Source: a virus. Taken from it: DNA of 64,000 bases. The position numbers and the translations under genes are program-made. Within the stretch, counting starts at the first letter, position 1. Each line of letters starts with the position of its first letter. The stretch covers positions 13,010-77,009 of the IMG/VR virus record IMGVR_UViG_3300043446_001144; one strand, written 5' to 3'. The notes below the pieces were generated by a model. That model was not told the origin of the DNA, made no database searches, and was given only the letters and a program-made list of their open reading frames with translations. Shown in pieces: positions 10,888-37,788 of this stretch.

Positions 10888-12810
10888 CTACACGTCCAGT
10901 ACGTCCTTCTCCAAACCACGTTCAGTCTTGATACGCCACCACACGTTTTCAGGAACCCAATCATTTAAAGTTCCAGTAAGACGTGGAATTTTTTGGTCTC
11001 GGCTAGGGTACCGGTAACTAATTGAGTTATACGCTGTTCCTCCCCATACAACTCCATATTCATCTGGTAGTGAACCGTCAAAATATTCCGATGCTTTAAA
11101 CGACTGCTCCAGTTGAACGCAATCTATATAGAAGGTTCCTGTACTACCACTAAAGTTTAGGGACAAGGTTGTTGCCGCAGAACCCGCTGGAATAAGGATA
11201 CTCAAGTCATACCTTGACCATGATGCGCCATTGACAGACTTAGAAGTGGTAGCAACGGTTGACGATGCAGAGTCTTTTGCGGTTAACGTCATAGTCATTG
11301 CTGCATTTGTTTTTGCATAAACGGATGCGGTGTAGTATTGACCAACAGTGATGTTGGCAGCATCCGCTGTGTAAGTCCAAGAACCTGTTGCAAGTATTTT
11401 TGCACTTCTAGTTCCTGCATAAGCGTCTGTTGTAACGTCAGTTTCTCTTGTAATTGTTGGAGAACCTGTTGAAGTCCAAAAAGTTGTGTTAGTTTCAAAA
11501 GAAGGATTTTTAATTAAATTTTTGTAGGTTGCATTTAACACAATGGTCAATGCTCGTGCTTCATCGTAGGACACTGAGGCGCCGCTTTGGTAGCACACCT
11601 GGTCAATATAGTAAGTTCCTGCAGCACTAAAATATACTTCTATATCTGCATAACTAGCAGACGAAGATGACGTTGCCGTAACACTTCCTGTTTTCCAAGT
11701 GTCATCTGCCGCTACTGGAGATGAAGATGCTGTTGAGCCAGTCTGTATTCCGTGTCTGTCGTAAAACGTTGTTCTAATAGTTACATTTCCAGCACTGGTT
11801 GGAGAACGGAATCTACATGAAACGGTGTACTCAGTACTTGGGTCTACCGGAATTCCCAATCTTATCGGGTCTGGATTTCCTAACCTCATATAAGAAACGC
11901 CTGTAGTAACAACTTGGCAAGAATATAGGTCATCTATGACATTAGTTCCAGTGGGTGGAGTAATTGCTGTTGAAGCAGTTAGAGTTGCGTTTGCGGTTGT
12001 CCAATTACCAGTAGAATTATAAAACGTAGAACTTTGAATATCTAGAATTTTGTTTTCAGATACGGTAATAGTTGGCGCATATCCAGTTAAAGACTCTACA
12101 TATGTTTCTAACCCGTTTAAAGTCCCTTTTCTGCTGTACATGTAGAGCGCTTCACGAACAAGTCTTTTTTGGTTTTTTATTGGTAAGGCAAACTCAGGAG
12201 TTAATCCTAGATGCCCGTACTCTAATGGCAATAATGATACTGGCGTATCAATACTCACATGCCTTGGTCGTAATAAATCCAAATAAGAAAGAAGTTCTTC
12301 TATTGAAAGAGATAGTCCTCCAATAAAGTTGTACAAATCTGAAGTATTTGAAACTTGTCCTAAAGGTGTTTGTTCTGCACTGGTAAACACTCTTGGTAAA
12401 AAAGAAAGTAATTTTTGATGCGTTTCCTTATCGAAGGGCACTATTGTGTTAGCGTCACCTGCAGGCACCCAAATACTACTTCCAGTAAATAAAAACATTC
12501 GGTAATAAACCATTCTTCCAGAAACAAGAGGCGTTACTGAAGGGTTGTCAATACCGTCGTCTATAGAAAGAATAGATGGAGTAGAGGCTGCTTCTTCCCA
12601 TACAGTAACCCCATCTTCAGCAGTTTCTGCGTATCCACCTTGGTTTCTTACTAACCTAATTTTAGAGAAGGTTCCTTGAGGTAGTTGCCAAGAAACTCTT
12701 ATTGCAGAAAACGACAATGCAAGAAGAGATATCGGTTCTACTGAATAGGTTAACTTAGCGGGTTGACCATATGTGAACGTTCCAAATATAGACGAACCAT
12801 ATTTTGCCAC
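10888..12810 (-). CDS. Baseplate wedge/tail protein (P2 gpI-like) with two CBM4_9-like carbohydrate-binding modules
   Basis: LYMYSRKGTLNGLETYVESLTG; NLIKNPSFE...YYTASVYAK...FYIDCVQLE; YFDGS. Confidence 0.75.
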   Translation of the reverse strand: MAKYGSSIFGTFTYGQPAKLTYSVEPISLLALSFSAIRVSWQLPQGTFSKIRLVRNQGGYAETAEDGVTVWEEAASTPSILSIDDGIDNPSVTPLVSGRMVYYRMFLFTGSSIWVPAGDANTIVPFDKETHQKLLSFLPRVFTSAEQTPLGQVSNTSDLYNFIGGLSLSIEELLSYLDLLRPRHVSIDTPVSLLPLEYGHLGLTPEFALPIKNQKRLVREALYMYSRKGTLNGLETYVESLTGYAPTITVSENKILDIQSSTFYNSTGNWTTANATLTASTAITPPTGTNVIDDLYSCQVVTTGVSYMRLGNPDPIRLGIPVDPSTEYTVSCRFRSPTSAGNVTIRTTFYDRHGIQTGSTASSSPVAADDTWKTGSVTATSSSSASYADIEVYFSAAGTYYIDQVCYQSGASVSYDEARALTIVLNATYKNLIKNPSFETNTTFWTSTGSPTITRETDVTTDAYAGTRSAKILATGSWTYTADAANITVGQYYTASVYAKTNAAMTMTLTAKDSASSTVATTSKSVNGASWSRYDLSILIPAGSAATTLSLNFSGSTGTFYIDCVQLEQSFKASEYFDGSLPDEYGVVWGGTAYNSISYRYPSRDQKIPRLTGTLNDWVPENVWWRIKTERGLEKDVLDV

Positions 12811-12866
12811 TGTTATACCCCTGTCTTTTGTTTAGGCTAGTTTAACGACTTTAATTTTTTGTTTTG

Positions 12867-13571
12867 TTACTTATTGACTTCTGCTTCCCAAAATTCTTTT
12901 TCAGTTTGGTATTTTTCTTCAAAGTTTGCCACATGACGATAATCACAGCAATCACAGATTGGTCTGTTATTACTGTAATCCGGCATGGACCAATACCCCA
13001 TTTTTGCTCTAAATCTAAAGTCTGATTTCCATGAATTTTCAGCGTGTCCATTTGGAGTAAACGCCCAATGGTCGGGCTCTGCAAACTGCATAAATAGAAG
13101 AGTTACAAACTTATCTTCTGTGTCTGTAGGAAATTCTGGTCTCCAATGCATTTGATAATTGCCGCAAAATACAACACATGAATTTGGCTCTTCTTCGTAA
13201 ACAGTGTCTTCTACTACCAATTCCCAATCAACGTTTTTTTCAATACATACATCTAAAGAATATTGACAGGCCGACTGGTCGTAGTGTTTCCAAAGTTGAG
13301 GGATAACACCATTCTGTTTCTGATATCGTCCAACATGAAACCCTGCTCTACGAAGAGTGTCACTTCCAAAAGTTTGTTTTGCTATCTTTAAAAGTTCTGC
13401 TTCTGTTTCAGAATCAAACCAAATTTCTTCTAACCATCTTCCAGCAACTGTGTGATAAAAATGCGGTCCTTCTGGACCAAGTTGTTTAGCCAGAACTTGT
13501 TGTTTTACTTTTTCAAATAATTCTGGTGAAAGAAAATTTTTTATTGAGGTTGCTTTTACATCAATTGTCAT
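12867..13571 (-). CDS. 2OG-Fe(II) oxygenase
   Basis: HYD...C.YSLD...HWR facial-triad pattern. Confidence 0.8.
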   Translation of the reverse strand: MTIDVKATSIKNFLSPELFEKVKQQVLAKQLGPEGPHFYHTVAGRWLEEIWFDSETEAELLKIAKQTFGSDTLRRAGFHVGRYQKQNGVIPQLWKHYDQSACQYSLDVCIEKNVDWELVVEDTVYEEEPNSCVVFCGNYQMHWRPEFPTDTEDKFVTLLFMQFAEPDHWAFTPNGHAENSWKSDFRFRAKMGYWSMPDYSNNRPICDCCDYRHVANFEEKYQTEKEFWEAEVNK

Positions 13572-14127
13572 TTAAGTTCATCCTTATTTGTTTTCTAATT
13601 TCCTCTACGTGTTGCGGACCTTCTGTAAACCACCAATGATTTGGCTCTACATAATGGAAAAACACAACTCCTATTTTCCCACTATTTGTGTAAAGTGTAT
13701 CCCGCCAGTGCTCATACTTTTCACCCATAAACATGATGGCTTCATTAGGGTTTGCAATGTAGGCTTTGTTGTCTACGTACAGAGCCCATGGGTCTACTTG
13801 GTAAAGAGTTAAGTCAAGAGTGTACGTACATGCATTTGCGTCTTTATGTTTAGATAGACTAATAGTCTCATCTGAGTATTCTGCAAACAAAGAGTACGAA
13901 GGAAGGCAAGTTTCTGTCCTAAAGTACTCTCTTACTTTTGGTAAGAGAATTTCACTATACTCTTTTAGTATAGGTTCTATATGTTCTCCTATTAGTTTTC
14001 TGCCAAATTCGTCTGTGTTCATTGAATCTAAAACAGGATTATCTTTAAAGTGCATTTTGAGTCTATCAAAATGGTAAGGTTCTAATACATTTTTTATTAT
14101 CCCTACCTCTTCGTTTATGCCATCCAT
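13561..14127 (-). CDS. 2OG-Fe(II) oxygenase
   Basis: HKD...CTYTLD...HWR...FFHYV. Confidence 0.8.
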   Translation of the reverse strand: MDGINEEVGIIKNVLEPYHFDRLKMHFKDNPVLDSMNTDEFGRKLIGEHIEPILKEYSEILLPKVREYFRTETCLPSYSLFAEYSDETISLSKHKDANACTYTLDLTLYQVDPWALYVDNKAYIANPNEAIMFMGEKYEHWRDTLYTNSGKIGVVFFHYVEPNHWWFTEGPQHVEEIRKQIRMNLNDN

Positions 14128-14690
14128 TGAACCACCACATATCTAAGACCATCTGTAACTGGATGAACTTCATGATTATATATAAAATTAGATGGAAATA
14201 TTAACAAATTGTTTTTTTCAGCCTTGAATCTGAGACCGAATCGTTTAAAAGATACGTCTCCACCTTCGTAATCTTCATTTAAGTAATAAGTTAAAGATAT
14301 TCTTCTAGTAAAAAATGGGTGGTCATCGATATGGTCATGGAATTTCTGTTCTTTTCCATATCTTAACAACTGTGGATTTTCAAAAGTTTCTATTTTTGCG
14401 TAGTAAGCATTTAAGTATTGTTCTAAGCATGGTTTCATGTTTTTATGAAATTCTTTTGTAAATTCTGTTAAAATTCCATCATCATTTGCTTCATGATGAG
14501 GGAGCATTATAAGGTCAGTGTCTCTTGCTTTGTGATTTGTTCCAGAAACATGCTCATTTTCATTAACCAGTACTTCTGCTTCTCTCCATGATATTTTGGA
14601 ATCTTGTATTCTTTTTATATATTCCATTGAATTTGTAAAAATTTTTTCAAATACAACAATTCCTGGCGCTAATTCTTTCACAGTTACCAC
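14115..14690 (-). CDS. Prolyl 4-hydroxylase-like 2OG-Fe(II) oxygenase
   Basis: QLLRY...HID...RRISLTYYLNEDYEGG...IFPS...HEVHPVTDGLRY..V.W. Confidence 0.9.
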   Translation of the reverse strand: MVTVKELAPGIVVFEKIFTNSMEYIKRIQDSKISWREAEVLVNENEHVSGTNHKARDTDLIMLPHHEANDDGILTEFTKEFHKNMKPCLEQYLNAYYAKIETFENPQLLRYGKEQKFHDHIDDHPFFTRRISLTYYLNEDYEGGDVSFKRFGLRFKAEKNNLLIFPSNFIYNHEVHPVTDGLRYVVVQWMA

Positions 14691-14890
14691 TTACCTATTG
14701 GACAAGTAGCATCTTCAAGTTTTGTTTTTAAAGGCATAAAGCACCCACATTTTTTACATTGTTTTGTCAGTTGAATCAGATGTTCGCAAGTAGAACAACT
14801 ATTCAGTCTTTCTTTAGCAAGTTCATCGCTCATTTTTGGTTTACTTGCGTTAAATAAATCCCACGGTCTAACCTTTTTTGGTGCTGTCAT
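14684..14890 (-). CDS. Small Cys-rich metal-binding protein (DUF6171-like, from recall)
   Basis: CSTCEH...CKKCGCFM..KT....ATCPIGKW. Confidence 0.75.
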   Translation of the reverse strand: MTAPKKVRPWDLFNASKPKMSDELAKERLNSCSTCEHLIQLTKQCKKCGCFMPLKTKLEDATCPIGKW

Positions 14891-15351
14891 ACGTTATGGC
14901 CTTTACTTTTTAAAAGTTCTTTTTGTTCATCTGTTAAATGAGTATGAACAACGGTACGTGGGTCAACCCAATTTTCTGGAGGAATAAAGTTATTATCATT
15001 ATCAACTGTCCATCCAGGTTCAACATATCTTTTTATACCTATGGTTTCAATAGGAGGTTTTGGTTCTCTAACAACTACAATAACTTTTGGTTCGCTTCGT
15101 AAAAGTGCGCTTATTAATTCAGAGCACTCTAAAGTCTCTACTACAGTCTCATTATTTAAAAAAGCAATTACAAATTTTCCTTCGTCAGATGGTGCTTCTA
15201 CGACCTCATAACCTGCTGTAATAAGGTCGTAGAACCACACGAAGGTGCCCATGATATGGACGATAATGTCATCTATAGCAAACGCTATTAATATCCCATC
15301 TTCTTTGTTATCTGGGTTTGTTGCTAACGAAATATCATTCATAGTAATCAT
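14887..15351 (-). CDS. Hypothetical protein (possible fibre-assembly partner)
   Basis: PGWTVDNDNNFIPP; TGa-TAGGAT-N6-ATG start. Confidence 0.6.
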   Translation of the reverse strand: MITMNDISLATNPDNKEDGILIAFAIDDIIVHIMGTFVWFYDLITAGYEVVEAPSDEGKFVIAFLNNETVVETLECSELISALLRSEPKVIVVVREPKPPIETIGIKRYVEPGWTVDNDNNFIPPENWVDPRTVVHTHLTDEQKELLKSKGHNV

Positions 15352-15363
15352 ATAGATATCCTA

Positions 15364-16089
15364 TCAGCAGAAAGCAGCGGCACAGCCGATTACGCATTGG
15401 CTACCACTGTTGCTGTAGCACCAATCGCATGAACCAACAGAACAGCCAGTCCAATACGCATCTGAAGCGGTGCACTTACACCCGTACCACGGACATTCTC
15501 CTGGAGGACATGGTCCAGAAGGAGTAACCGGTGGAGTAACTGGAGGAGTAACCGGTGGAGTAACCGGTGGAGTAACTGGAGGAGTAACCGGTGGAGTAAC
15601 TGGAGGAGTAACAGGAGGAGTAACCGGTGGAGTAACTGGAGGAGTAACCGGTGGAGTAACTGGAGGAGTAACAGGAGGAGTAACCGGCGGAGTAACTGGA
15701 GGAGTAACCGGCGGAGTAACAGAGGTATCGTTTACTGTAATTGTAGAACTTGTGGCAACAATAGTCCCACTTGTAGAGGTAATTCGTAAGTTTGCCCTAA
15801 ATGACTCTGTACCTTCTGTAGATGCGTCATTATTTAACGTGACTGAAAAAGAACCAGAATTATTAGTAATCGTTACAGAACTACCAGAACTAACAGCGTT
15901 AGCAGGGGAACTAAAGTCAGAGTTGTTTATCGTGCCTGTGATACCTTCAAGAGTCCAGTATAAAGTTCCAGTTCCAAAATTAGTTGTAGTTATTGTAAAA
16001 GTTACTGTGCTACCTTCGTTTACTGAGGTTGTATTGGGCGAAATTGAATACGTAGGCGAAGCAAATATAGGCATTACGATGCCAGTCAT
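15364..16089 (-). CDS. Fibre-tip-like protein: Calx-beta/Ig-like domain, (PPVT)16 stalk, 10-Cys C-terminal domain
   Basis: SVNEGSTVTFTITT...DASTEGTESF...TITVNDTS, then the tandem repeat and Cys-rich end. Confidence 0.8.
   Translation of the reverse strand: MTGIVMPIFASPTYSISPNTTSVNEGSTVTFTITTTNFGTGTLYWTLEGITGTINNSDFSSPANAVSSGSSVTITNNSGSFSVTLNNDASTEGTESFRANLRITSTSGTIVATSSTITVNDTSVTPPVTPPVTPPVTPPVTPPVTPPVTPPVTPPVTPPVTPPVTPPVTPPVTPPVTPPVTPPVTPPVTPSGPCPPGECPWYGCKCTASDAYWTGCSVGSCDWCYSNSGSQCVIGCAAAFC
15520..15720 (-). repeat. 12-bp coding tandem repeat (GTT ACT CCN CCN) x16+
   Basis: ggagtaac recurs every 12 nt, 17 times (15521-15713); variation only at Pro third positions. Confidence 0.95.
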
Positions 16090-17048
16090 TATGTAAGGCC
16101 ATTTCCGCTAGCAATCCATGTTGTGGAAGCAACTTTTAAAAGAGTGCACATACCATTAGAAGCCAGGGTTCTTGAACCCGTAGAACTGGTGTTTGCTAAT
16201 CTTAAGGTGTCTGAGGTTATTGCTATCGTTGTACTAACGGTATCAGCATTTACAACTACTATCGTTGTACCTACTGGAAATGCCACAGAACCATTAGACG
16301 GAATAGTAATTGTTTGTCCAGTAGTTGTAACGTAGATGTGTTTACCAGCATCTGATGCAGCAAGTGTTATCCCTGTTCCAGTGCTGTTTTGAGGCATGCC
16401 CATGTAACCAGCACCAGAGGTTGCTGTCGTAGTGGTTCCTGCTGCAGGAGTAATGGTTGGTCCAGTTCCAAATACAAGTGAGCCGGAACCAGTCTCATCT
16501 GTCACTGCAGAAGCAAGATTAGACGAGGAGGGTGTTCCAAGCCAGGTTGCAATTCCTGTGCCAAAAGACGTAATTCCAGTTCCACCATTTGCTACCGGTA
16601 ATGTTCCAGAAATTCCTGTAGTTAAAGGTAGTCCAGTGCAACTTGATAAAGTTCCGCTTGATGGAGTCCCAAGTGCTCCACCATTGGTTACAAAAGCACC
16701 TGATGAGCCAACGCTTACTCCTAGTGCAGTAGCAACACCTGTTCCAAAAGAAGCAATACCAGTTCCGCCGTTAACAACTGGTAGGACATTAGTTCCGCCA
16801 ATCTTGTCATACACATTTTTTAAACCATATTCAAGGTTATTAACACGGGCTTTTACGGTAGCCCATGACGTTGTTGTCGAATCAAATGAGCCAATCCAGC
16901 CAGAACTAACTGTGGGTGATGTTCCTAAAGCGGTCTGTACCGCAACAGTTTCTTCTTGAAGAGAGTTTACGTGGTCAGCAATGACCGTATCAACAAAGTC
17001 TACTTTAGTTACAAAGGACTTTACATTGGAGGGGTAAGACGCTGCCAT
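16089..17048 (-). CDS. Tail fibre/adaptor protein
   Basis: ADHVNSLQEE anchor, LPVxNGGTG repeats, C-terminal FPVGTTI...WIASGNGLT domain. Confidence 0.75.
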   Translation of the reverse strand: MAASYPSNVKSFVTKVDFVDTVIADHVNSLQEETVAVQTALGTSPTVSSGWIGSFDSTTTSWATVKARVNNLEYGLKNVYDKIGGTNVLPVVNGGTGIASFGTGVATALGVSVGSSGAFVTNGGALGTPSSGTLSSCTGLPLTTGISGTLPVANGGTGITSFGTGIATWLGTPSSSNLASAVTDETGSGSLVFGTGPTITPAAGTTTTATSGAGYMGMPQNSTGTGITLAASDAGKHIYVTTTGQTITIPSNGSVAFPVGTTIVVVNADTVSTTIAITSDTLRLANTSSTGSRTLASNGMCTLLKVASTTWIASGNGLT

Positions 17049-17112
17049 AACCTCTTCTTTCTAATAATTCCCCCCTATTTTCGTCGGTTTGCCTTAAATT
17101 TATTGGCTGAAC

Positions 17113-17808
17113 TCACGCTATCTGGTTAACCGTCACTATCACAGACGGGACCGCAGGGTAGGGAGACGCGGCAGGCCTATTCTCAAGTCTTATGTTGGCG
17201 TTATCATTAGACCAAAAGACCTGGAAATAATCGTCTGCCTTCATATACTCAAACAAATTAACAGTCATTACCTGGTATTCATTACTGCCTACTACTATCG
17301 AAGTGGCTGAGTTGTCTATGGCTGTACCATTTTTAGCAAACCAAAGATAAGCCGATTGTCCTGCTCCTCCGCCTCCTGTGTTATGGATTTGAGCAGAAAA
17401 CTGAATGTTGTAAGTAGCAGGTTCTTCAATAACGAGTTTGGAAGAGTCTTTTAAAAACACTCCCTCTTCAAAAAAGGCTGTAGTCAAAGGTACCGCTGTA
17501 CCAACTCCTGGAGTAGCCGTTAAATCTCCAGTATTACACCAAGACCCGTATGCCATCAATCCTTGAGGGTCTTCTCCAAACTCTCCAATCCATACTGGAT
17601 ATTCCGGATTTCCTCCTATGTACATCACCCATGTACCAGTACCTACTGCTGGAGGACGTTTTGTCGAGAGTACAGGCCAAATCCAATCAGTTACTTGGTC
17701 TCCTGTAATTTGGGGAACCACTACTCGTATGCGTCGTAAATGTTTGGGGTCCTTGTTGTACTTTACGACTGCTCGATAGACTCCCTCGTAACGTGGTACT
17801 AAATCCAT
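17113..17808 (-). CDS. Baseplate spike (gp5/gpV OB-fold) with C-terminal jelly-roll-like domain
   Basis: YRAVV..NKDP...RIRVVVPQ...P.VG..WV.Y.GG.PEYPVWIG; YNIQFSAQ. Confidence 0.85.
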   Translation of the reverse strand: MDLVPRYEGVYRAVVKYNKDPKHLRRIRVVVPQITGDQVTDWIWPVLSTKRPPAVGTGTWVMYIGGNPEYPVWIGEFGEDPQGLMAYGSWCNTGDLTATPGVGTAVPLTTAFFEEGVFLKDSSKLVIEEPATYNIQFSAQIHNTGGGGAGQSAYLWFAKNGTAIDNSATSIVVGSNEYQVMTVNLFEYMKADDYFQVFWSNDNANIRLENRPAASPYPAVPSVIVTVNQIA

Positions 17809-17809
17809 A

Positions 17810-19354
17810 TTAGATTTCTGTCAAAGTTAAATTTGCCTCAGAAAATCTGAAAATTTCATCAGCCTGTCCTACAAGAGTTGTTAAATCAGACAAGTCTCCG
17901 TCTCTGTAGAGTGCTGTTACCTTTACTGTTTTAACTCCAGGAGTTTGAATTAATACAAACTCAATATCTTGTGGGTATATCGTATCCTGAAACGACAGAT
18001 TTACATAATTGAACCCTGATAGTAACGCACTCTTTAATCCTGCTTCTACTTCAACAGCAGTATACTGCGGTAATCTAACATACTCAAGATTCAGTATTGC
18101 GTCGATATAATCCGGTGGTTGAACAGTTACTGTTGTTCCAATTAAAAGTTTGTCTTCAAGAAATGTCTCCACATCTCCTTTAAGGCGAGTGTATTCCTCT
18201 GTTGGAGTTCCAGTGCCGTCAAGTCCTGGGGCATCATCGGTGTCCACCGCACTTCTACTTGGAGCAATGTACAACGATATTGACGTCCATACTGAAGCAT
18301 AAGCATTTGCTTTGCCCACACCACTTACACTTAATGCTAAATCAGAAAAATCTTTTAATGTAACTGCACGGTTTCCAGAACGAAGAGATGCAGGAGCAGA
18401 GACACGAATTTGGTCATTAGTTTCTGGGTCTGCACCACCAATTGCAGCCTCAAGATTATCTACGGAAATAACGCTTTGAATAGCAGTTGTTTGTGACTCT
18501 GATAATCCCGGTATATACTCAATAGTTGTTAGAGTTGATGCTGGAACATTTCCTAATGAACCAGAGCCAACTGTATACTCAACACGAATTTCTGATAGTA
18601 GAGTAGGTATTGCTCCAGAAATACCGTCACCAAAGTTAACAGTTACTACGTTATTTTCATCTGTTGAAACTGTAAACACTAGGTCTGTTGGGTCATAGTC
18701 CATAATATGTTGAACTTGTGTCCATTTAGAATAAGATGACCCATCTTGTACGTAAACTTGAACACTACCATCTACGACAGAGGTTTGGCTTAATTCAAAT
18801 ATTTGTTCAGGAAGTCCTGATGAAGTTCCCAAAAGTTCTCCAAATGAATTAGTGTTGGTTGATACGCGTTGAATAGAGCGTCCTTCTACTGCTCCGACTA
18901 CCTCTTGTCCTGATGCTGAAACTATTACATCTGCTTGAGTAGAAAAGTAGATAGTTTGAACAGTGTCTCCAAGAGTTATATCAGCAGATATGACTGTTCC
19001 TTCTGAAAGAGTCACCGTGGTTGACGAAGTATTGGTAAAAGTTAGGTCTACATATGCTTGACGATATCCAGCAGGTATATACCCGTATGATTGTGCAATA
19101 TCAATAAGGCTCTCTCTTTGAATAGCCGTTTCTAAAAACGATTCGTTAGCAGTTCTGTCTATATAGTAGGAGATAATGTCTCCCATATACGAGAAGGCTT
19201 CGACTAATGCAACTCCAAAATCTGCTGGGTCAGAGGCTGTCCAATCAGGAATACGGTTCTGTATACGAGCAATTAATGCTTCACGCAAAGAATAGTAGTC
19301 TCTATTGGTGTAATCAACTGAAACCGGTACGTTAGATGCTGGTGTTATACTCAT
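17810..19354 (-). CDS. Baseplate J-like (gp6/gp47) wedge protein
   Basis: DYTNRDY, DFGVALVE, FGDG, GGADPET, RAVT..DF. Confidence 0.92.
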   Translation of the reverse strand: MSITPASNVPVSVDYTNRDYYSLREALIARIQNRIPDWTASDPADFGVALVEAFSYMGDIISYYIDRTANESFLETAIQRESLIDIAQSYGYIPAGYRQAYVDLTFTNTSSTTVTLSEGTVISADITLGDTVQTIYFSTQADVIVSASGQEVVGAVEGRSIQRVSTNTNSFGELLGTSSGLPEQIFELSQTSVVDGSVQVYVQDGSSYSKWTQVQHIMDYDPTDLVFTVSTDENNVVTVNFGDGISGAIPTLLSEIRVEYTVGSGSLGNVPASTLTTIEYIPGLSESQTTAIQSVISVDNLEAAIGGADPETNDQIRVSAPASLRSGNRAVTLKDFSDLALSVSGVGKANAYASVWTSISLYIAPSRSAVDTDDAPGLDGTGTPTEEYTRLKGDVETFLEDKLLIGTTVTVQPPDYIDAILNLEYVRLPQYTAVEVEAGLKSALLSGFNYVNLSFQDTIYPQDIEFVLIQTPGVKTVKVTALYRDGDLSDLTTLVGQADEIFRFSEANLTLTEI

Positions 19355-31137: not shown

Positions 31138-32634
31138 CTATGCCACCCGTGTGATAGAGGCCACGTAGAACGTGTAAGTGTTTGTTGTCCCAGAGTTCAT
31201 TGTTAGTTTTAGGTAGTTTAAGGCAGTTGTGTCTACTGCTACGGCAGTGGTGGTGTTGGTTGTGACTGTGCTGCCGTTGTAATGACTGGTTGTGCTTCCA
31301 AGAATAGTTCCGGCAATTCCAGTACTTCGCACTGTAATAAGGGCATTTATTTCTATTGCCCCTGCAGTTGCTGTTGCTCCAATGGTTCCTGTTGTTGCGA
31401 CGGTACCAGTCGTTGCGGATGTAGTTGTTCCTACTCTAACATTGTAGGTAGCAGTAACATTGTTAGTTCCAGTGCGAACTCCGTATGCCCTTACAATGTA
31501 ACTAGAACCAACTACTAAAGCATCTGCGGCTACAGCAAGGTTGATAACGTTGGTCTCTGTCGCTGCAGTTGTGGTTACGCTGGTTGTTAATGAACTACCA
31601 CTTAAACCCAGAGTGCCTTGAATTCCTTGTGTACCTATTGTTCCTTGGTTTCCTGTTAAACCTGTAGTTCCCTGGAATCCTTGAATTCCCGTAAGACCTT
31701 GAGTTCCTTGTCGGCCTTGAATTCCTTGAGTACCTTGAGCACCTGTGGCACCTTGAATACCGTTAGTTCCCTGTGTACCAACCGTACCTTGAGAGCCTAG
31801 TGTTCCTTGAATACCCTGTCTTCCTTGAATTCCTTGTGTTCCTTGCGTACCAAGGACACCTTGTGTTCCTTGTCGGCCTTGAATTCCTTGAGTACCAATG
31901 ACTCCTTGAATACCTGTTAAACCTTGCGCACCAACACCAACCGAACCTTGCGCACCAATTACTCCCTGTATTCCTTGAGTTCCCTGTGTGCCGAGCGTTC
32001 CTTGAGAGCCGGTTGTTCCTTGACGTCCCTGTACACCTTGTACTCCTTGAAGACCTGTAAGACCTTGGTTTCCAGCAATACCTTGTGCACCAGCAGTTCC
32101 CTGTGCACCCTGTTGACCAACACCTGTAATTCCCTGTAAACCAATGTAGCCCTGCAATCCTTGCGCACCTGCAGTTCCTTGCGCACCATTACTGCCACTA
32201 GTTCCAGAAGAGCCTTGCGTTCCTGTTCTACCTTGAACACCTTGTGTTCCATTTGTGCCCTGAATACCCGCAGAACCGTTAGAACCTGCAGTTCCTTGTG
32301 TTCCTGTTCCCGCAACACCTTGAGTTCCATTTAAACCTTGAGTACCAGTCGTACCCTGACGACCTTGAGTTCCTTGAGCACCTGTTCCATTTGCTCCTTG
32401 AATACCAAGCGCACCCTGTGTTCCAGTAAATCCTTGAATACCTATTGTTCCAGTTGTTCCTTGGAGTCCTAACGGACCACGAGTTCCTTGTACGCCTTGA
32501 CGACCTTGAGTTCCTTGTCGGCCTTGAATAGCCTGTGTACTTAAAGATTGGATTCCAGCATCTAAATAATCAAGCGCTGCATTAAGTGTGACATCCCAAT
32601 CGGATTGTCCTGCAACGGGCTTTTGAAGTGGCAC
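31138..32634 (-). CDS. Collagen-like fibre protein (G-X-Q/G-T-T) with C-terminal beta domain
   Basis: About 310 aa of Gly-X-Y with a few interruptions; N-terminal W...LNAAL anchor. Confidence 0.88.
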   Translation of the reverse strand: MPLQKPVAGQSDWDVTLNAALDYLDAGIQSLSTQAIQGRQGTQGRQGVQGTRGPLGLQGTTGTIGIQGFTGTQGALGIQGANGTGAQGTQGRQGTTGTQGLNGTQGVAGTGTQGTAGSNGSAGIQGTNGTQGVQGRTGTQGSSGTSGSNGAQGTAGAQGLQGYIGLQGITGVGQQGAQGTAGAQGIAGNQGLTGLQGVQGVQGRQGTTGSQGTLGTQGTQGIQGVIGAQGSVGVGAQGLTGIQGVIGTQGIQGRQGTQGVLGTQGTQGIQGRQGIQGTLGSQGTVGTQGTNGIQGATGAQGTQGIQGRQGTQGLTGIQGFQGTTGLTGNQGTIGTQGIQGTLGLSGSSLTTSVTTTAATETNVINLAVAADALVVGSSYIVRAYGVRTGTNNVTATYNVRVGTTTSATTGTVATTGTIGATATAGAIEINALITVRSTGIAGTILGSTTSHYNGSTVTTNTTTAVAVDTTALNYLKLTMNSGTTNTYTFYVASITRVA

Positions 32635-33326: not shown

Positions 33327-34328
33327 ATGAATTTGGTACAACGAGCAGTCTCATCTGGCGGAAAACTTGCCCCTCTAGTCATCTCCCACGGTCTAACCGC
33401 TGGAACAGGGCTAATGAACCCCTCAATTTTTATAGACGATGAAGGCGATATTCTTGTCAATTTACGGCATGTTAACTACACCCTCTATCATGCAGAAAAT
33501 CATCAGAAGTTCCCAAGTAGATGGGGACCTCTCTCTTATTTGCATCCAGAAAAAGACCAACGTCTAGTTACCGTCAATTATGTTTGTCGTCTAGACGAAA
33601 ATCTCTTAATGACTGATTTTGCAAAAGTTGATACTTCTAAGTTTGATGTTGAGCCTAAATGGGAATTTGTTGGTGAAGAAGACTGCCGTCTTGTTCAATG
33701 GGATGGCGACTACTATTTAGTAGGCGTTCGTAGAGATACTACTACTAATGGTGAAGGACGTATGGAGTACAGTAAAGTGACAATAGATAAACGCAAATGG
33801 TCTGTTAAAGAGGTTTCTCGTGTTCGCATTCCTGCTCCTATGCCCAACATCTCTTACTGTGAAAAGAATTGGGTACCTATTATTGATAAACCTTATCACT
33901 TTGTAAAATGGGTATCCCCAGTAGAAATTGTAAAAGCGTCCCCCAACAAATCGGAATGTGACCAAGTTAAATTAAAACAGTGTCTTGTTACTCCCATGGA
34001 CCAACGAGGAAGTTCTCAAGTTATTAGATGGAAAGGACAGTACATCTCTATAACACACGATGTTGATTTATTTAAAAATTATTTGAATCAAAAAGACGGA
34101 ATCTATCGTCATCGTGTACTAGTTTGGAATGATGACATGAACCTTATTGGAATTTCTAATCAATTTTCTTTTTTAGATGCTCGAATAGAGTTCTGTGTTG
34201 GGGCTGCAGTTCATAACGAAGATTTATTGATATCTTTTGGATTTCAAGATAACGCTGCTTTTGTGCTGAGAACTCCTGCACATATTGTGGACGCTCTTGT
34301 AGAGGAGGCTTTGCAATATGGCAATTGA
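33327..34328 (+). CDS. Five-bladed propeller carbohydrate-active enzyme (GH130/GT91-like)
   Basis: NPSI, EDCRL, EKNWVP, RGSS, IEFCVG, ISFG.QD motifs. Confidence 0.7.
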   Translation: MNLVQRAVSSGGKLAPLVISHGLTAGTGLMNPSIFIDDEGDILVNLRHVNYTLYHAENHQKFPSRWGPLSYLHPEKDQRLVTVNYVCRLDENLLMTDFAKVDTSKFDVEPKWEFVGEEDCRLVQWDGDYYLVGVRRDTTTNGEGRMEYSKVTIDKRKWSVKEVSRVRIPAPMPNISYCEKNWVPIIDKPYHFVKWVSPVEIVKASPNKSECDQVKLKQCLVTPMDQRGSSQVIRWKGQYISITHDVDLFKNYLNQKDGIYRHRVLVWNDDMNLIGISNQFSFLDARIEFCVGAAVHNEDLLISFGFQDNAAFVLRTPAHIVDALVEEALQYGN

Positions 34329-34878
34329 AGATTTGATAGTTGACTTATCAAGTGACCCGTTCAATCACGAAAAGAACTTCACCGTTGCAAGTGAATATCA
34401 AAAGTTAAATCAAACCGCTTCTGCTGTTTCCTTTTACCTAAGAACTGCAGAGTATGGTCCAGAAAAAGGAAGCCCACATGTATACGCATCTCTATTAAAG
34501 ATGGCGAGATGCTTTAATGACCAGCATGACAGAAAGCACACTGTAACAAACTGTCTACTTCAAGCAATTGCTTATTGGCCTGAACGACCAGAAGCGTACT
34601 TTTATCTATCGCAATTTCATGAAAGAGAAAGTAATTGGCAAGAATGCTACACCTTTGCAGAAATTGGTCTTAATCTTGCTGATTTTGACAAACTTCCAGG
34701 AGAACTTGACTATTACGGAAAGTATTGCTTGGAATTTGAAAAGGCAGTAAGCGCCTACTGGGTGGGACGTCGAGATGAGAGCATCAGTATGTTTATACAG
34801 TTAAAGACCAAAAATCTAGAGTCTGATTATGTTGAATCTGTAGAAACTAATCTAAGGAGTTTAGGTGTTACTTTTTGA
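34318..34878 (+). CDS. TPR protein
   Basis: Helical repeats, AIAYWPERPEAYFYL. Confidence 0.75.
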   Translation: MAIEDLIVDLSSDPFNHEKNFTVASEYQKLNQTASAVSFYLRTAEYGPEKGSPHVYASLLKMARCFNDQHDRKHTVTNCLLQAIAYWPERPEAYFYLSQFHERESNWQECYTFAEIGLNLADFDKLPGELDYYGKYCLEFEKAVSAYWVGRRDESISMFIQLKTKNLESDYVESVETNLRSLGVTF

Positions 34879-35536
34879 TATTGGTGCAAACCGTGGTGAC
34901 GCAGTAGTTGCTGGGTTAAACAAAGGGTACAAAGTAGTTGCTGTTGAGGCTGCTCCTAAAATATTCAGAGCATTAGAGACTAACTTTAAAAATAACCCTA
35001 ATGTTCGTACCATAAAGTTTGCTGTTTCTGAAAAAGATTTTGAAACTGTAAATTTCTACGAATGTATTGAAGATGGGCTTTCAACCCTAAATTTAGACTG
35101 GCTTACAGCAGACACCATGCCATACAATGGGAAACGGTTTTGGACAGTAGAAGTTACGACAATAACTATCGACACTCTAGTTAATTTGTACGGAAAACCT
35201 GACCTTATAAAAATAGACGTAGAAGGTGCAGAATGGTCTGTTTTCAAAGGAATGACGCAAAATTATGGAAAACTTACCTTTGAATGGACTTTTGAAACCA
35301 TAAAAGAACACGAAAAACAATTAGACTATCTCTACACGTTAGGGTATACACATGTTGCTCCACAGTACATCGTCCATCACTTAGACGAGCCTACTGAATG
35401 GTATGAACTGCAGCAAAATAACCTCAATCAACTGTACATTTGGCATCAAGAGACCTCCGATGCATGGATAGAGGGTGGGTGGAAAACCGCAAACCTTAGA
35501 CCAACTGCCGATGTTGGAATGTGTTGGGTAAAGTGA
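34865..35536 (+). CDS. FkbM-family methyltransferase
   Basis: FDIGANRG, VVAVEA, TIDTL...PDLIKIDVEGAE. Confidence 0.92.
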   Translation: MLLFDIGANRGDAVVAGLNKGYKVVAVEAAPKIFRALETNFKNNPNVRTIKFAVSEKDFETVNFYECIEDGLSTLNLDWLTADTMPYNGKRFWTVEVTTITIDTLVNLYGKPDLIKIDVEGAEWSVFKGMTQNYGKLTFEWTFETIKEHEKQLDYLYTLGYTHVAPQYIVHHLDEPTEWYELQQNNLNQLYIWHQETSDAWIEGGWKTANLRPTADVGMCWVK

Positions 35537-35548
35537 TAGGGTTTAGCA

Positions 35549-36226
35549 ATGACTAACGCTCTTCCGCATTTCAATATAATCTTTGCAACTCCAGGGCACT
35601 CTATGCTTCCCGGATATGTTCGAAGTATACTAAAAAGCACTTACTATTTGACTCACAAAGGTCTAACATGGAATTACCTTACTGATTATTCCTCTTTGGT
35701 TGCGCACGCAAGAGAAAAGACTATTGGTGGAACAGGTTATCAAGACCGCAGTAATAAAAAACCAGGTCATGGAACCTTTACCTACGATGTTATAGTTTGG
35801 ATTGACTCAGACATAGCGTGGGAGCCAGAAGATTTGTTTAGACTCATAGAGCATAAAGAGGAGATTGTTTCTGGGTGCTACATGATGGAGAATGGAGAAG
35901 TGACTGTTTATCCAGAAGCATTAAAAAACGGTATGAGAGTAGAGGAAATTCTTCGCATGAAGAAGCCGTTTGAAGTTAGAGGAGTAGGTTTTGGGTTTTT
36001 AGCAATTAAGTATGGGGTATTTGAGCGCATGGAGCGTCCTTGGTTCTCTCAGGTCGAGGTCGAGGTAATGAATGATAAAACAGGAGAACCAGAATACAAA
36101 TTTCCTCTTATGGGAGAAGACTTGTCTTGGTGTGAGAAGGCGCATCGTATGGGGTTGAAAATTTGGGTGGACCCACTTATCAGGGTGACGCATCACAAAC
36201 AAATAAAGTTGGAATGGCCTCGTTAA
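35549..36226 (+). CDS. GT-A (GT2-like) glycosyltransferase
   Basis: WIDSDI, VSGCY, GFGF, PWF, GEDLSWC. Confidence 0.85.
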   Translation: MTNALPHFNIIFATPGHSMLPGYVRSILKSTYYLTHKGLTWNYLTDYSSLVAHAREKTIGGTGYQDRSNKKPGHGTFTYDVIVWIDSDIAWEPEDLFRLIEHKEEIVSGCYMMENGEVTVYPEALKNGMRVEEILRMKKPFEVRGVGFGFLAIKYGVFERMERPWFSQVEVEVMNDKTGEPEYKFPLMGEDLSWCEKAHRMGLKIWVDPLIRVTHHKQIKLEWPR

Positions 36227-36751
36227 ATGCCTGTATCTAACCCAGAAACCAAACCTTGGATTGCTAAACAATTACTTGCTTTAAAACCTAGAACTGTTCT
36301 AGATGTTGGAGCAGGAAAAGGTTTATATTTAAACTTAGTATACGATGTACTTGGAAAACACAATGTTCACGTAACTGGCGTTGAAGTATGGGAAGAGTAT
36401 GTAAACTTTTTTATGCTTGAAATGCGGTATGACAAGTTAGTAAAGGCTGACGTAAGAGACATGCAGGAGTTTAATTACGATTTAGTTATTCTTGGAGATG
36501 TCCTTGAACACATGTCCAAAGATGATGCGTTAGCATTGTGGACTAAGATAAGTAAACAGGCAAAATACGCTGTAATTGCTATACCTGTTGTTCATCACCC
36601 ACAAGATGCAGTAAACGGTAATCCCTTTGAAGTACATGTAAAGGAAGATTGGACCACTACCGAAGTGCTAGAGAGTTTCCCTGGTATTATTGACCATGCC
36701 GAGTTTTCAGTATGCGGTGCCTTTTTAGCCAAATTTAAAGGAGATTTATGA
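36227..36751 (+). CDS. Class I SAM-dependent methyltransferase
   Basis: LDVGAGKG, GVEVW, YDLVILGDVLEH. Confidence 0.9.
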   Translation: MPVSNPETKPWIAKQLLALKPRTVLDVGAGKGLYLNLVYDVLGKHNVHVTGVEVWEEYVNFFMLEMRYDKLVKADVRDMQEFNYDLVILGDVLEHMSKDDALALWTKISKQAKYAVIAIPVVHHPQDAVNGNPFEVHVKEDWTTTEVLESFPGIIDHAEFSVCGAFLAKFKGDL

Positions 36752-36888
36752 GTGTTTATAAACGCCCTGGTTGGACACACCCGTCACCTTTTGCAAATGC
36801 AGAAACTGCACCTACTGAACCGTTAGATGTCGTTTCAGAAGAAGAGCCTTTAGTAGATGAACCTTTGTTGCCTGTAGTAGAGGAATAG
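36748..36888 (+). CDS. 46-aa acidic peptide (MSVYKRPGWTHPSPF...VVEE)
   Basis: Read manually; ATGA overlap upstream, abuts the next ATG. Confidence 0.6.
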   Translation: MSVYKRPGWTHPSPFANAETAPTEPLDVVSEEEPLVDEPLLPVVEE

Positions 36889-37788
36889 ATGACTGAGAAG
36901 GTTATGCCTATGGGAGGCTCTGACATTATGTTGGAGGGCCTCAAAAAATACGTAAATTTAGATGGGATAAACGTTATACAGTCAGTATGTGATGAAAGGT
37001 TGATTGACTTAGATAAAAAGAATATTCTTTGGCAGCATTTGCCCGCAAATCAACCATTAGTTCAAGGAATTAGTGACAAGTATTTTCAACGGCAGTTAGA
37101 TGCCACCGTTATGGTTTCTCACTGGCAACATGAAAAGTACAGATTTATGCATCAAATTCCGTTATCTAATGTTGTTGTTATAAAGAATGCTATAGAACCT
37201 ATAGAGTTTATTCCTCGTTCTACAGGTCGTAAAATAAAGGTAATATATGCGTCTCCGCCATATCGCGGTTTAGACGTAATGTTAGCGTCTTTTGAGTTAT
37301 TAAACAGAGATGATGTTGAGTTAGATATTTACTCCTCTACGATTATCTATGGCTCAGATTATGTAAAACATGAGGGTGACCGATACGAACCTCTATTTAA
37401 TAAAGCAAGGGAATTGCCTAATGTAAACTACATTGGTTATGTTCCTCATAAAGAGATGATAAGTGCCTTCCAAAATGCCGACATTCTTGCATATCCTTGC
37501 ACTTTTGAAGAAACTTCGTGTCTTACAGTAATTGAGGCCGCCGCTGCTGGGTGCAAAATTGTTACTACTAACATTGGCGGTCTTCCTGAAACAGGCTCTG
37601 AATTTGCAACTCTAGTACCAATACAAGCAACACATCTCGAATTAGTGTCTAGTTTTTCTTACTTTTTAAATAAAGTAATTGATGAAATTGATTCTTTTGA
37701 TGGAGCGTACCAGTCATCTTTTTACAACAAAATGTATGATTGGGAAAGACGTGCTATTGAATGGAAGTCTTTAATTAGTATGCTCTAA
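36889..37788 (+). CDS. GT-B (GT4-like) glycosyltransferase
   Basis: PMGGS, VSHWQ, YASPPYRGL, YP..FEETSC...IEAAAAG. Confidence 0.9.
   Translation: MTEKVMPMGGSDIMLEGLKKYVNLDGINVIQSVCDERLIDLDKKNILWQHLPANQPLVQGISDKYFQRQLDATVMVSHWQHEKYRFMHQIPLSNVVVIKNAIEPIEFIPRSTGRKIKVIYASPPYRGLDVMLASFELLNRDDVELDIYSSTIIYGSDYVKHEGDRYEPLFNKARELPNVNYIGYVPHKEMISAFQNADILAYPCTFEETSCLTVIEAAAAGCKIVTTNIGGLPETGSEFATLVPIQATHLELVSSFSYFLNKVIDEIDSFDGAYQSSFYNKMYDWERRAIEWKSLISML

Follow-up and report, generated by a model that had tools for sequence, protein, structure and literature searches.

A proline-repeat stalk protein as the candidate substrate of three 2-oxoglutarate oxygenases encoded beside it in a freshwater phage

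Among the so-called auxiliary metabolic genes that marine and freshwater phages carry, those for 2-oxoglutarate (2OG)-Fe(II) oxygenases, "ferrochelatases" and prolyl 4-hydroxylases (P4Hs) are some of the commonest. The role of phage 2OG oxygenases has been called cryptic (PMC9301287), and the enzymes have been linked to the balance of 2OG, to DNA repair or to metabolites (PMC3037559; PMC2938197; PMC11561400). Here we ask what three such enzymes, encoded side by side among the baseplate genes of one virus, act on. The window that we analysed is a stretch of 64,000 nucleotides (positions 13,010 to 77,009) of the 77-kb IMG/VR virus record IMGVR_UViG_3300043446_001144, which comes from a freshwater metagenome and is approximately 79% complete. 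The three genes, referred to as oxyA, oxyB and oxyC, lie in it next to a gene for a protein with a (PPVT)16 repeat and a Cys-rich C-terminus, which we refer to as the stalk-and-tip protein (table 1). That the oxygenases modify this neighbouring stalk is well supported by comparative genomics, and we consider the stalk protein their likely substrate. Together with more than 100 related loci, the locus points to a concrete, adjacent protein substrate, and the stalk is a testable candidate for the abundant, unexplained 2OG oxygenases of phages.

The specific model that we propose is that 12867-16089 represents a self-contained, horizontally mobile "stalk-and-tip" cassette placed between an adaptor gene and a gpI-like gene. 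Its product would be a fibre-like appendage composed of a beta-sandwich head, the (PPVT)16 polyproline-type rod and a 10-Cys knot, and the cassette would also supply the proteins that mature this appendage. The three 2OG/Fe(II) oxygenases would modify the rod post-translationally: oxyA, as a P4H relative, would most likely form hydroxyproline, and oxyB and oxyC would most likely hydroxylate the second Pro or the Val further. A small acidic protein and a DUF6171 protein encoded between stalk gene and oxygenases would probably aid folding or assembly of the stalk protein, perhaps of its Cys-rich tip. We lean towards this model of oxygenases maturing the (PPVT)16 rod with modest confidence. The arrangement of the genes supports it, because they overlap or directly adjoin each other on a single strand within a late structural operon. 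The points that we add here are the insertion relative to related genomes, the link of oxyC to Pro-Pro-Val repeats, a test stratified by Pro repeat and Cys tail, and the homology of the accessory protein.

All seven ORFs of the initial annotation are present at 12867-17048 on the minus strand, which carries every gene from 10.9 to 21 kb, and they do lie within the baseplate/fibre block as described, flanked by genes for gpW-, gpJ- and gpV-like baseplate proteins on one side and for a gpI-like CBM protein on the other. The gene order is gpW-like, gpJ-like, gpV-like spike, adaptor, stalk, acidic protein, DUF6171, oxyA, oxyB, oxyC and gpI-like. The block of seven genes is tightly packed, with most genes overlapping by 1-13 nt and no gap larger than 65 nt, and from the adaptor through oxyC neighbouring genes overlap or lie 12 nt apart. 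In the five closest relatives (loci L002-L005 and L020), in which gpV is 45-65% and gpJ approximately 60% identical to the proteins encoded in the window, the order tape measure protein...gpW-gpJ-gpV-adaptor-gpI is kept, and a short adaptor is followed directly by gpI with nothing between them. Because these five nearest relatives keep the flanking order without the block, 12867-16089 is, as judged from comparative gene order, an added cassette, that is, an insertion. The adaptor itself has a shorter homolog after gpV in all close relatives, the N-terminal part being 39-60% identical in L002-L005, and adaptor homologs are also encoded upstream of stalk genes at many other loci.

The stalk-and-tip protein contains exactly 16 PPVT units, and all of its 10 Cys are within the last 48 residues, in full agreement with its first description. 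From a rise of 3.1 A per residue, the repeat would presumably form a polyproline-II rod of approximately 20 nm. The N-terminal domain, initially described as Ig/Calx-beta, is conserved, being 67-77% identical in four other phage contigs (including L082-L084), but its matches to Ig_3 (27.7 bits, E 3.9e-6, cut-off 30) and Calx-beta (14 bits, E 0.05, cut-off 27) are weak and both remain below the Pfam gathering score; it is likely a beta-sandwich. This Ig-like domain is present in 42 viral loci, mostly in large fibre-like proteins, and approximately 30 more distant carriers have neither Pro repeats nor oxygenases.

To determine whether stalk and oxygenases are paired in other phages, we used three independent anchors: the stalk domain, oxyB/oxyC and DUF6171. 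With the stalk domain as anchor, the four closest contigs make up a natural series. At L084/L088, a (PPVT)n protein with a Cys tail is followed by DUF6171, oxyA, oxyB and oxyC, which are 73-79% identical to those of the window. At L086, the gene for a (PT)n protein with Cys modules precedes those for the small protein, for DUF6171, for an enzyme of the oxyA type and for a transferase resembling GT60. At L083, where DUF6171 is absent, a protein with Pro repeats but without Cys is followed by DUF6065 and an oxygenase of the PF13640 family. The sister cassette at L082 (8010-11950; = L085) encodes a stalk with a Cys tail and poly-Thr linkers in place of Pro repeats, together with the small protein, a radical S-adenosylmethionine (SAM)/SPASM enzyme, a PF11397 (GT60) GlcNAc-transferase and an epimerase, with no oxygenase, and this gene content is suggestive of O-glycosylation of the mucin type and perhaps of thioether formation or another modification of Cys at the tip. 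Anchoring on oxyB yielded a (PPVV/PPVT)n protein, mostly Cys-tailed, one or two genes upstream of DUF6171-oxyA-oxyB-oxyC in 9/9 loci. Anchoring on oxyC gave 29 loci for which 3.4 kb or more of upstream sequence was available; 28 of these encode a repeat protein of the type PPV[TV], almost always Cys-tailed, and the Ig-like domain was found in none of the oxyB- and oxyC-anchored loci. Clustered at 90% identity, the oxyC-anchored loci fall into 15 groups. Because stalk proteins differ in their N-termini and tips even inside a single oxyC cluster, repeat and enzymes stay together while the rest is exchanged.

DUF6171 relatives are encoded on at least 556 viral contigs, of which we used the best 80 as the third anchor; 61 of these had enough flanking sequence to be scored for oxygenases. 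When a Pro-rich upstream gene was defined as having at least 10 Pro in 30 aa, oxygenases were present in 23 of the 28 loci with such a gene versus 10 of the 33 without (Fisher p = 8e-5); lowering the threshold to 8 Pro in 30 aa gave 26/31 versus 7/30. By comparison, 80 gpV-anchored control baseplate loci covering 859 kb contained no oxygenases, no DUF6171, no Pro-rich genes and no Cys tails (at least 6 Cys).

Stalk genes frequently have both a Pro repeat and a Cys tail, and an alternative is that the oxygenases, together with DUF6171 and the small protein, mature the Cys-rich tip, either in the manner of ribosomally synthesized and post-translationally modified peptides (RiPPs) or by EGF-type Asp/Asn hydroxylation, so that the Pro repeat would be a spacer. 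Genes with a Cys-rich tail, defined as at least 6 Cys in the last 60 aa and counted on a non-overlapping gene set, are found upstream of DUF6171 in 22 of 68 loci versus 0 of 1480 control windows, and some cassettes additionally encode a radical SAM/SPASM enzyme, whose class frequently targets peptides rich in Cys. Many stalk proteins are short and share the N-terminal peptide SPLFRNPSGIG and a variable Cys-rich end; that of the window has an N-terminal domain and is encoded among fibre genes. However, stratification of the DUF6171 loci revealed that oxygenase presence tracks the Pro repeat and not the Cys tail: oxygenases occur in 10/13 loci with a Pro repeat only, 13/15 with both, 1/4 with a Cys tail only and 9/29 with neither. 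Individual loci follow this division, as L083, L206, L141 and L167 combine Pro repeats with oxygenases in the absence of a Cys tail, whereas L082, L153 and L179 have Cys tails without an oxygenase. In addition, the cassette in the window has no protease, exporter or leader-recognition domain, of which the first two would be typical of RiPPs. We regard maturation of the tip by the oxygenases as quite unlikely.

The set of enzymes also changes with the repeat motif. Repeats of the type PPV[TV] are accompanied by oxyA, oxyB and oxyC; (PT)n repeats by oxyA and/or oxyB, often with GT60, and never by oxyC; (VTPA/PVTP)n repeats by oxyA alone; and aromatic repeats (PFFP/PPYF) by another PF13640 type, DUF6065 and several oxyA-like genes. 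Thus, oxyC occurs almost exclusively with PPV[TV] repeats, and oxyB and oxyC occur together solely with Pro-Pro-Val-type repeats. As a separate observation on the aromatic type, the loci L139, L157, L200, L164 and L083 encode PFFP, FPPFFP and PPYF repeats alongside DUF6065 (PF19541), the different PF13640 type and as many as five additional oxyA-like genes, and DUF6065 may be another modifying enzyme.

Which chemistry the three enzymes catalyze can be approached from their sequences and folds. The annotation of one P4H-like enzyme and two further oxygenases holds, with the P4H-like assignment applying to oxyA only. In oxyA, H120, D122 and H173 are invariant among 28 sequences, and its profile matched, among solved structures, the P4H of B. 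anthracis (3itq/5hv0, 2e-13) and that of the chlorovirus PBCV-1 (5c5t, 6e-10), followed by lower-ranked matches to PiuC, PHD2 and the Chlamydomonas P4H and a weak match to mimivirus 6ax6 (E 0.007). Neither oxyB nor oxyC matched any Pfam model, and their profiles found nothing significant among solved structures. Both share an HxD...H-x-R pattern: oxyB has an invariant R142 and a triad of H94, D96 and H140 that is conserved to 90% or more, and in oxyC, H96, D98, H142 and R144 are invariant. The AlphaFold2 model of oxyB (mean predicted local distance difference test [pLDDT] score of 94) has a 2OG oxygenase fold with generic Foldseek matches to 2OG (aKG) oxygenases, PHD2 and vCPH, and that of oxyC (pLDDT 85) has as its best matches 3dkq, PHD2 and the P. 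putida P4H, leaning toward prolyl hydroxylases. Both models match hundreds of 2OG oxygenase chains with E < 1e-5, and on the basis of predicted fold and metal triad we assign oxyB and oxyC to the 2OG/Fe(II) oxygenases.

The closest clusters of oxyB and oxyC in a protein atlas are virus-only and unnamed. The oxyC protein found no match among 50,697 GenBank phage records, and the oxyB profile, searched against one genome per species of 185,579 prokaryote species, hit only 4 short contigs of metagenome-assembled genomes. Distant tblastn matches to the enzyme families of the window (phrog_61, phrog_2954 and phrog_3531) were found in 358 phage records, mostly of cyanophages. The names "ferrochelatase" and "DNA endonuclease (V)" given to these oxygenase families in PHROG and RefSeq look like misnomers.

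A further possibility is that the oxygenases do modify the stalk, only not as prolyl hydroxylases, and instead hydroxylate Val or Thr side chains or desaturate or cross-link the repeat. Members of the 2OG oxygenase superfamily catalyze many types of reactions, oxyB and oxyC have no specific similarity to P4Hs beyond the fold, and their joint occurrence with a Pro-Pro-Val core only would make Val a possible target. On the other hand, oxyA is nearest to true P4Hs, and Pro is the sole residue common to the repeats that are paired with oxyA-type enzymes (PT, VTPA, PPVT and PPVV). Because all three enzymes retain the Asp of the HxD motif, their sequences also argue against halogenases. Overall, we consider a purely non-prolyl activity unlikely.

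Several observations weigh against the stalk protein as the substrate. When independent pairs were compared on the DUF6171 tree, 6 went the expected way, 2 went the opposite way and 4 were ties (p = 0.29), the tree being built from 66 residues with almost no supported branches and one well-supported pair. Approximately one-third of the DUF6171 loci without a Pro-rich gene do have an oxygenase, 5 of the 28 Pro-rich loci have none, and the loci compared share ancestry. The likeness of oxyB and oxyC to prolyl hydroxylases is one of general fold only (template modeling scores of approximately 0.5-0.6). Finally, the T4-like cyanophages S-IOM18 and S-T4 have DUF6171 and 2OG oxygenases without a Pro-repeat neighbor. 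Among cultured phages, S-IOM18 has an oxygenase beside DUF6171, S-T4 and Stenotrophomonas phage Moby have DUF6171 by itself, and a Pro-repeat neighbor was found in none of them; some phage 2OG oxygenases, then, fall outside the stalk explanation. The initial proposals that Pro-repeat genes and oxygenases co-occur across phages and that the PPVT protein is the substrate are consequently upheld in part: the pairing recurs from several anchors, is absent from the 80 controls and involves an enzyme set that follows the motif, but it does not reach significance in the phylogeny-aware test.

These observations are also relevant to the explanation that the oxygenases are auxiliary genes for host proteins, nucleic acids or metabolites that landed in a hot spot of fibre genes beside an unrelated Pro-rich linker. 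In the literature, cyanophage 2OG oxygenases have been proposed to repair DNA, to control 2OG levels or to take part in secondary metabolism (PMC3037559; PMC2938197), and the oxygenase arrays of cultured cyanophages have no Pro-repeat neighbor. The enzyme genes moreover have a GC content below their surroundings (0.32-0.37 at 12-15 kb vs. approximately 0.40-0.47 elsewhere), whereas that of the stalk and adaptor genes is ordinary, so that the description of the module as AT-rich applies to its enzyme part and not to these two genes. Auxiliary genes in a hot spot are, however, difficult to reconcile with the lack of oxygenases in control baseplate loci, with a Pro-repeat pairing that emerges from three independent anchors and an enzyme type that shifts with the repeat type, and with the translational coupling of the genes inside a structural operon. 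We find this explanation rather unlikely.

Table 1. Features of the stalk-and-tip cassette and its borders in the window
Feature	Coordinates	Strand	Evidence and remarks
gpI-like tail protein with CBM_4_9 domain	10888..12810	-	Downstream boundary; directly after adaptor in relatives
oxyC, oxyB paralog with C-terminal helical extension	12867..13571	-	phrog_2954, E 5e-9
oxyB, 2OG/Fe(II) oxygenase, virus-only family	13561..14127	-	phrog_2954 ("ferrochelatase"), E 1e-13
oxyA, 2OG/Fe(II) oxygenase, P4H type	14115..14690	-	PF13640, above cut-off, E 2.5e-15
DUF6171 protein, 68 aa	14684..14890	-	PF19668, 33.1 bits vs. cut-off 27; phrog_13558; first of enzyme block
Small acidic protein, 154 aa	14887..15351	-	phmmer relatives; profile-profile match to "s70" family
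Stalk-and-tip protein, 241 aa, candidate substrate	15364..16089	-	Beta-sandwich-type domain + (PPVT)16 + 10-Cys tip
C-terminal tip, residues 191-241, 10 Cys	15367..15519	-	Sequence widely different among relatives
(PPVT)16 repeat, residues 126-189	15523..15714	-	Tandem repeat 15520-15720, period 12/24/36/60
Ig-like domain of stalk protein, residues 12-125	15715..16056	-	Matches Ig_3 and Calx-beta weakly
Fibre adaptor-like protein, 319 aa	16089..17048	-	No Pfam or PHROG family
gpV-like baseplate spike	17113..17808	-	PF04717, synteny; upstream boundary of conserved baseplate block

The two small genes between the stalk gene and the oxygenases are constant companions of the stalk, as stalk gene, small acidic protein and DUF6171 travel together whichever enzymes follow. 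The CxxC/CxxCGC protein noticed at first reading corresponds to DUF6171 and scores above the Pfam cut-off; the six Cys of its pattern CxxC...CxxCGC...C are invariant in 10 aligned sequences. Members of the family of the acidic protein are always encoded between the stalk gene and DUF6171, and homology links the C-terminal half of this 154-aa protein to the "s70" proteins of 64-79 aa that occupy the same position elsewhere (hhalign 94.9%, E 5e-8). We infer a probable role of the acidic protein and DUF6171 in folding or assembly of the stalk protein, with the acidic protein possibly acting as a chaperone; a complex prediction of DUF6171 with the 10-Cys tip gave a score of 0.02. In cultured phages, DUF6171 is an unannotated ORF of 84 aa in Synechococcus phage S-T4 (L253:3322-3576, minus strand), and in S-IOM18 (L135:4980-5856) the DUF6171 gene is followed by a 2OG oxygenase that is annotated as "DNA endonuclease V". 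As a side observation, the CKKCGC core of DUF6171 (14735-14767 of the window) is a point at which assemblies from four further studies pile up with unlike flanks, which agrees with a motif that is common in many other freshwater phages.

A more far-reaching version of the cassette model is that phages possess a modular, virus-restricted system in which each repeat motif is matched by its own hydroxylase set and the knot at the tip is folded by DUF6171 and the accessory protein. Under such a system, the three oxygenases would place three different hydroxyl groups on the Pro-Pro-Val core, and the rod would end in a hypervariable disulfide or metal knot that is folded in the host cytoplasm. We regard this generalization as doubtful. 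If it were true, a large share of the "2OG oxygenase/ferrochelatase/P4H" genes of aquatic phages would serve virion decoration and not host metabolism.

Glycosylation of the stalk had been suggested initially as a possibility. In this genome the suggestion is unsupported, given that PF11397 (GT60) has no match in the 77-kb record, at its approximately 79% completeness, and the glycosyltransferases of the window, at 35549-37788, are of generic GT2 and GT4 types and lie approximately 20 kb from the cassette. Related cassettes do encode a PF11397/GT60-like transferase and an oxyA-type enzyme beside Pro/Thr repeats (L086, L140, L163 and L182); among the loci sampled, poly-Thr and GT60 were not significantly associated (p = 0.07-0.10). 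The transferases of the window belong to its sole plus-strand block (33327-37788), which encodes an FkbM methyltransferase, a weak GT2 match, a SAM methyltransferase and a GT4-type glycosyltransferase and for which we found no link to the stalk cassette. Collagen-repeat proteins are encoded at 31138-32634 and 44003-46267 on the minus strand (PF01391, E 1e-44 and 3e-90). Their description as almost free of Pro is accurate, the Gly-X-Y regions containing 1 Pro in 303 and 2 Pro in 582 residues and being rich in Thr and Gln, and the two proteins are unlikely P4H substrates.

Virus-encoded hydroxylation of a virus's own Pro-repeat proteins is a known kind of system, and the fit of the locus to it is partly supported. 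Its closest precedent is PBCV-1. According to a secondary account of Eriksson et al. (1999) in PMC9301287, this virus has a P4H and its own ORFs with Pro-rich repeats. The likeness to its enzyme vCPH (PDB 5c5t/5c5u) consists of a viral PF13640-type oxygenase combined with viral Pro-rich repeat proteins. Unlike in PBCV-1, the host here is bacterial and not algal, a single operon holds the enzyme genes next to that of the candidate substrate, the cassette adds two oxygenases without Pfam matches, DUF6171 and a small accessory protein, and the repeat is PPVT with a Cys-rich tip at its end. The likeness of PPVT to extensin-type repeats, which had also been pointed out, stands as a resemblance and nothing beyond that. 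The B. anthracis P4H (3itq, 5hv0) is, as the best solved relative of oxyA, likewise a small single-domain P4H, albeit with low identity. Its known peptide substrates are collagen-like Gly-Pro-Pro repeats.

In the Skp1 pathway of Dictyostelium and Toxoplasma, the P4H PhyA acts first and is followed by Gnt1 of CAZy family GT60. The related cassettes with an oxyA-type and a PF11397/GT60-like gene beside Pro/Thr repeats resemble this pathway and the plant and algal hydroxyproline-rich glycoproteins. In the Skp1 pathway, however, a single Pro is modified as opposed to a repeat, and the genome of the window has no PF11397 match; no arabinosyl- or galactosyl-transferase of plant type was identified here. 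The collagen lysyl hydroxylase/glycosyltransferase of mimivirus (6ax6) provides another case of a virus that hydroxylates its own structural repeats, although it targets collagen Lys and has its hydroxylase fused to a glycosyltransferase.

Oxygenases of the same families (phrog_61, phrog_2954 and phrog_3531) occur in cyanophages and marine phages, including the tandem dioxygenase arrays of cyanophage Syn9 (Iyer et al. 2010; PMC2938197) and the "2OG-Fe(II) oxygenase/ferrochelatase" auxiliary genes of marine phages (PMC3037559; PMC11561400). The published assignments for these genes are metabolite synthesis, DNA repair or 2OG control, and they name no substrate, whereas a specific protein substrate is suggested here. 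In the literature that we searched, no hydroxyproline is reported in any bacteriophage protein, queries for phage hydroxyproline, GT60 in viruses and DUF6171 returned nothing relevant, and the class of cassettes with stalk and oxygenases is undescribed. If the oxygenases do act in the proposed way, many such genes would be genes for structural maturation and not metabolic genes, and phage fibres would have to be counted among the hydroxylated Pro-repeat rods, alongside collagen, extensins and chlorovirus proteins.

Additional observations concern the stalk genes and the sequence around them. Loci L217-L239 (e.g., L219:3150 and L224:3518) encode many short stalk proteins with a GTG start and an N-terminal SPLFRNPSGIG ahead of the repeat, which could be a docking peptide or a recognition leader, and their Cys-rich ends are of a few recurring, very variable types. 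Some Pro-repeat or stalk proteins (L128:5811-7220, L202:2732-3757 and L087:7631-9028) end, as judged by eye, in a Hint/intein-like autoprocessing domain with a Cys at its start and a ...THN-like end, which hints at cleavage or ligation of their C-termini. A plus-strand ORF at 15470-16096 with GGVT repeats was rejected as an antisense shadow of the stalk gene. A scan for promoters and terminators identified no more sites than in shuffled sequence, and a nucleotide search with positions 12000-18000 had no matches among GenBank phages. None of the sequencing runs listed as carrying sequence of the module is an RNA run. Near-identical fragments of every gene of the module are present in assemblies from four other studies, as short and shallow contigs none of which spans the repeat. 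Finally, the C-terminal domain of the gpV-like spike (residues approximately 85-230) is common to at least 587 viral contigs, often without a match to the N-terminal OB domain, and seems to be a widespread, exchangeable spike-tip domain.

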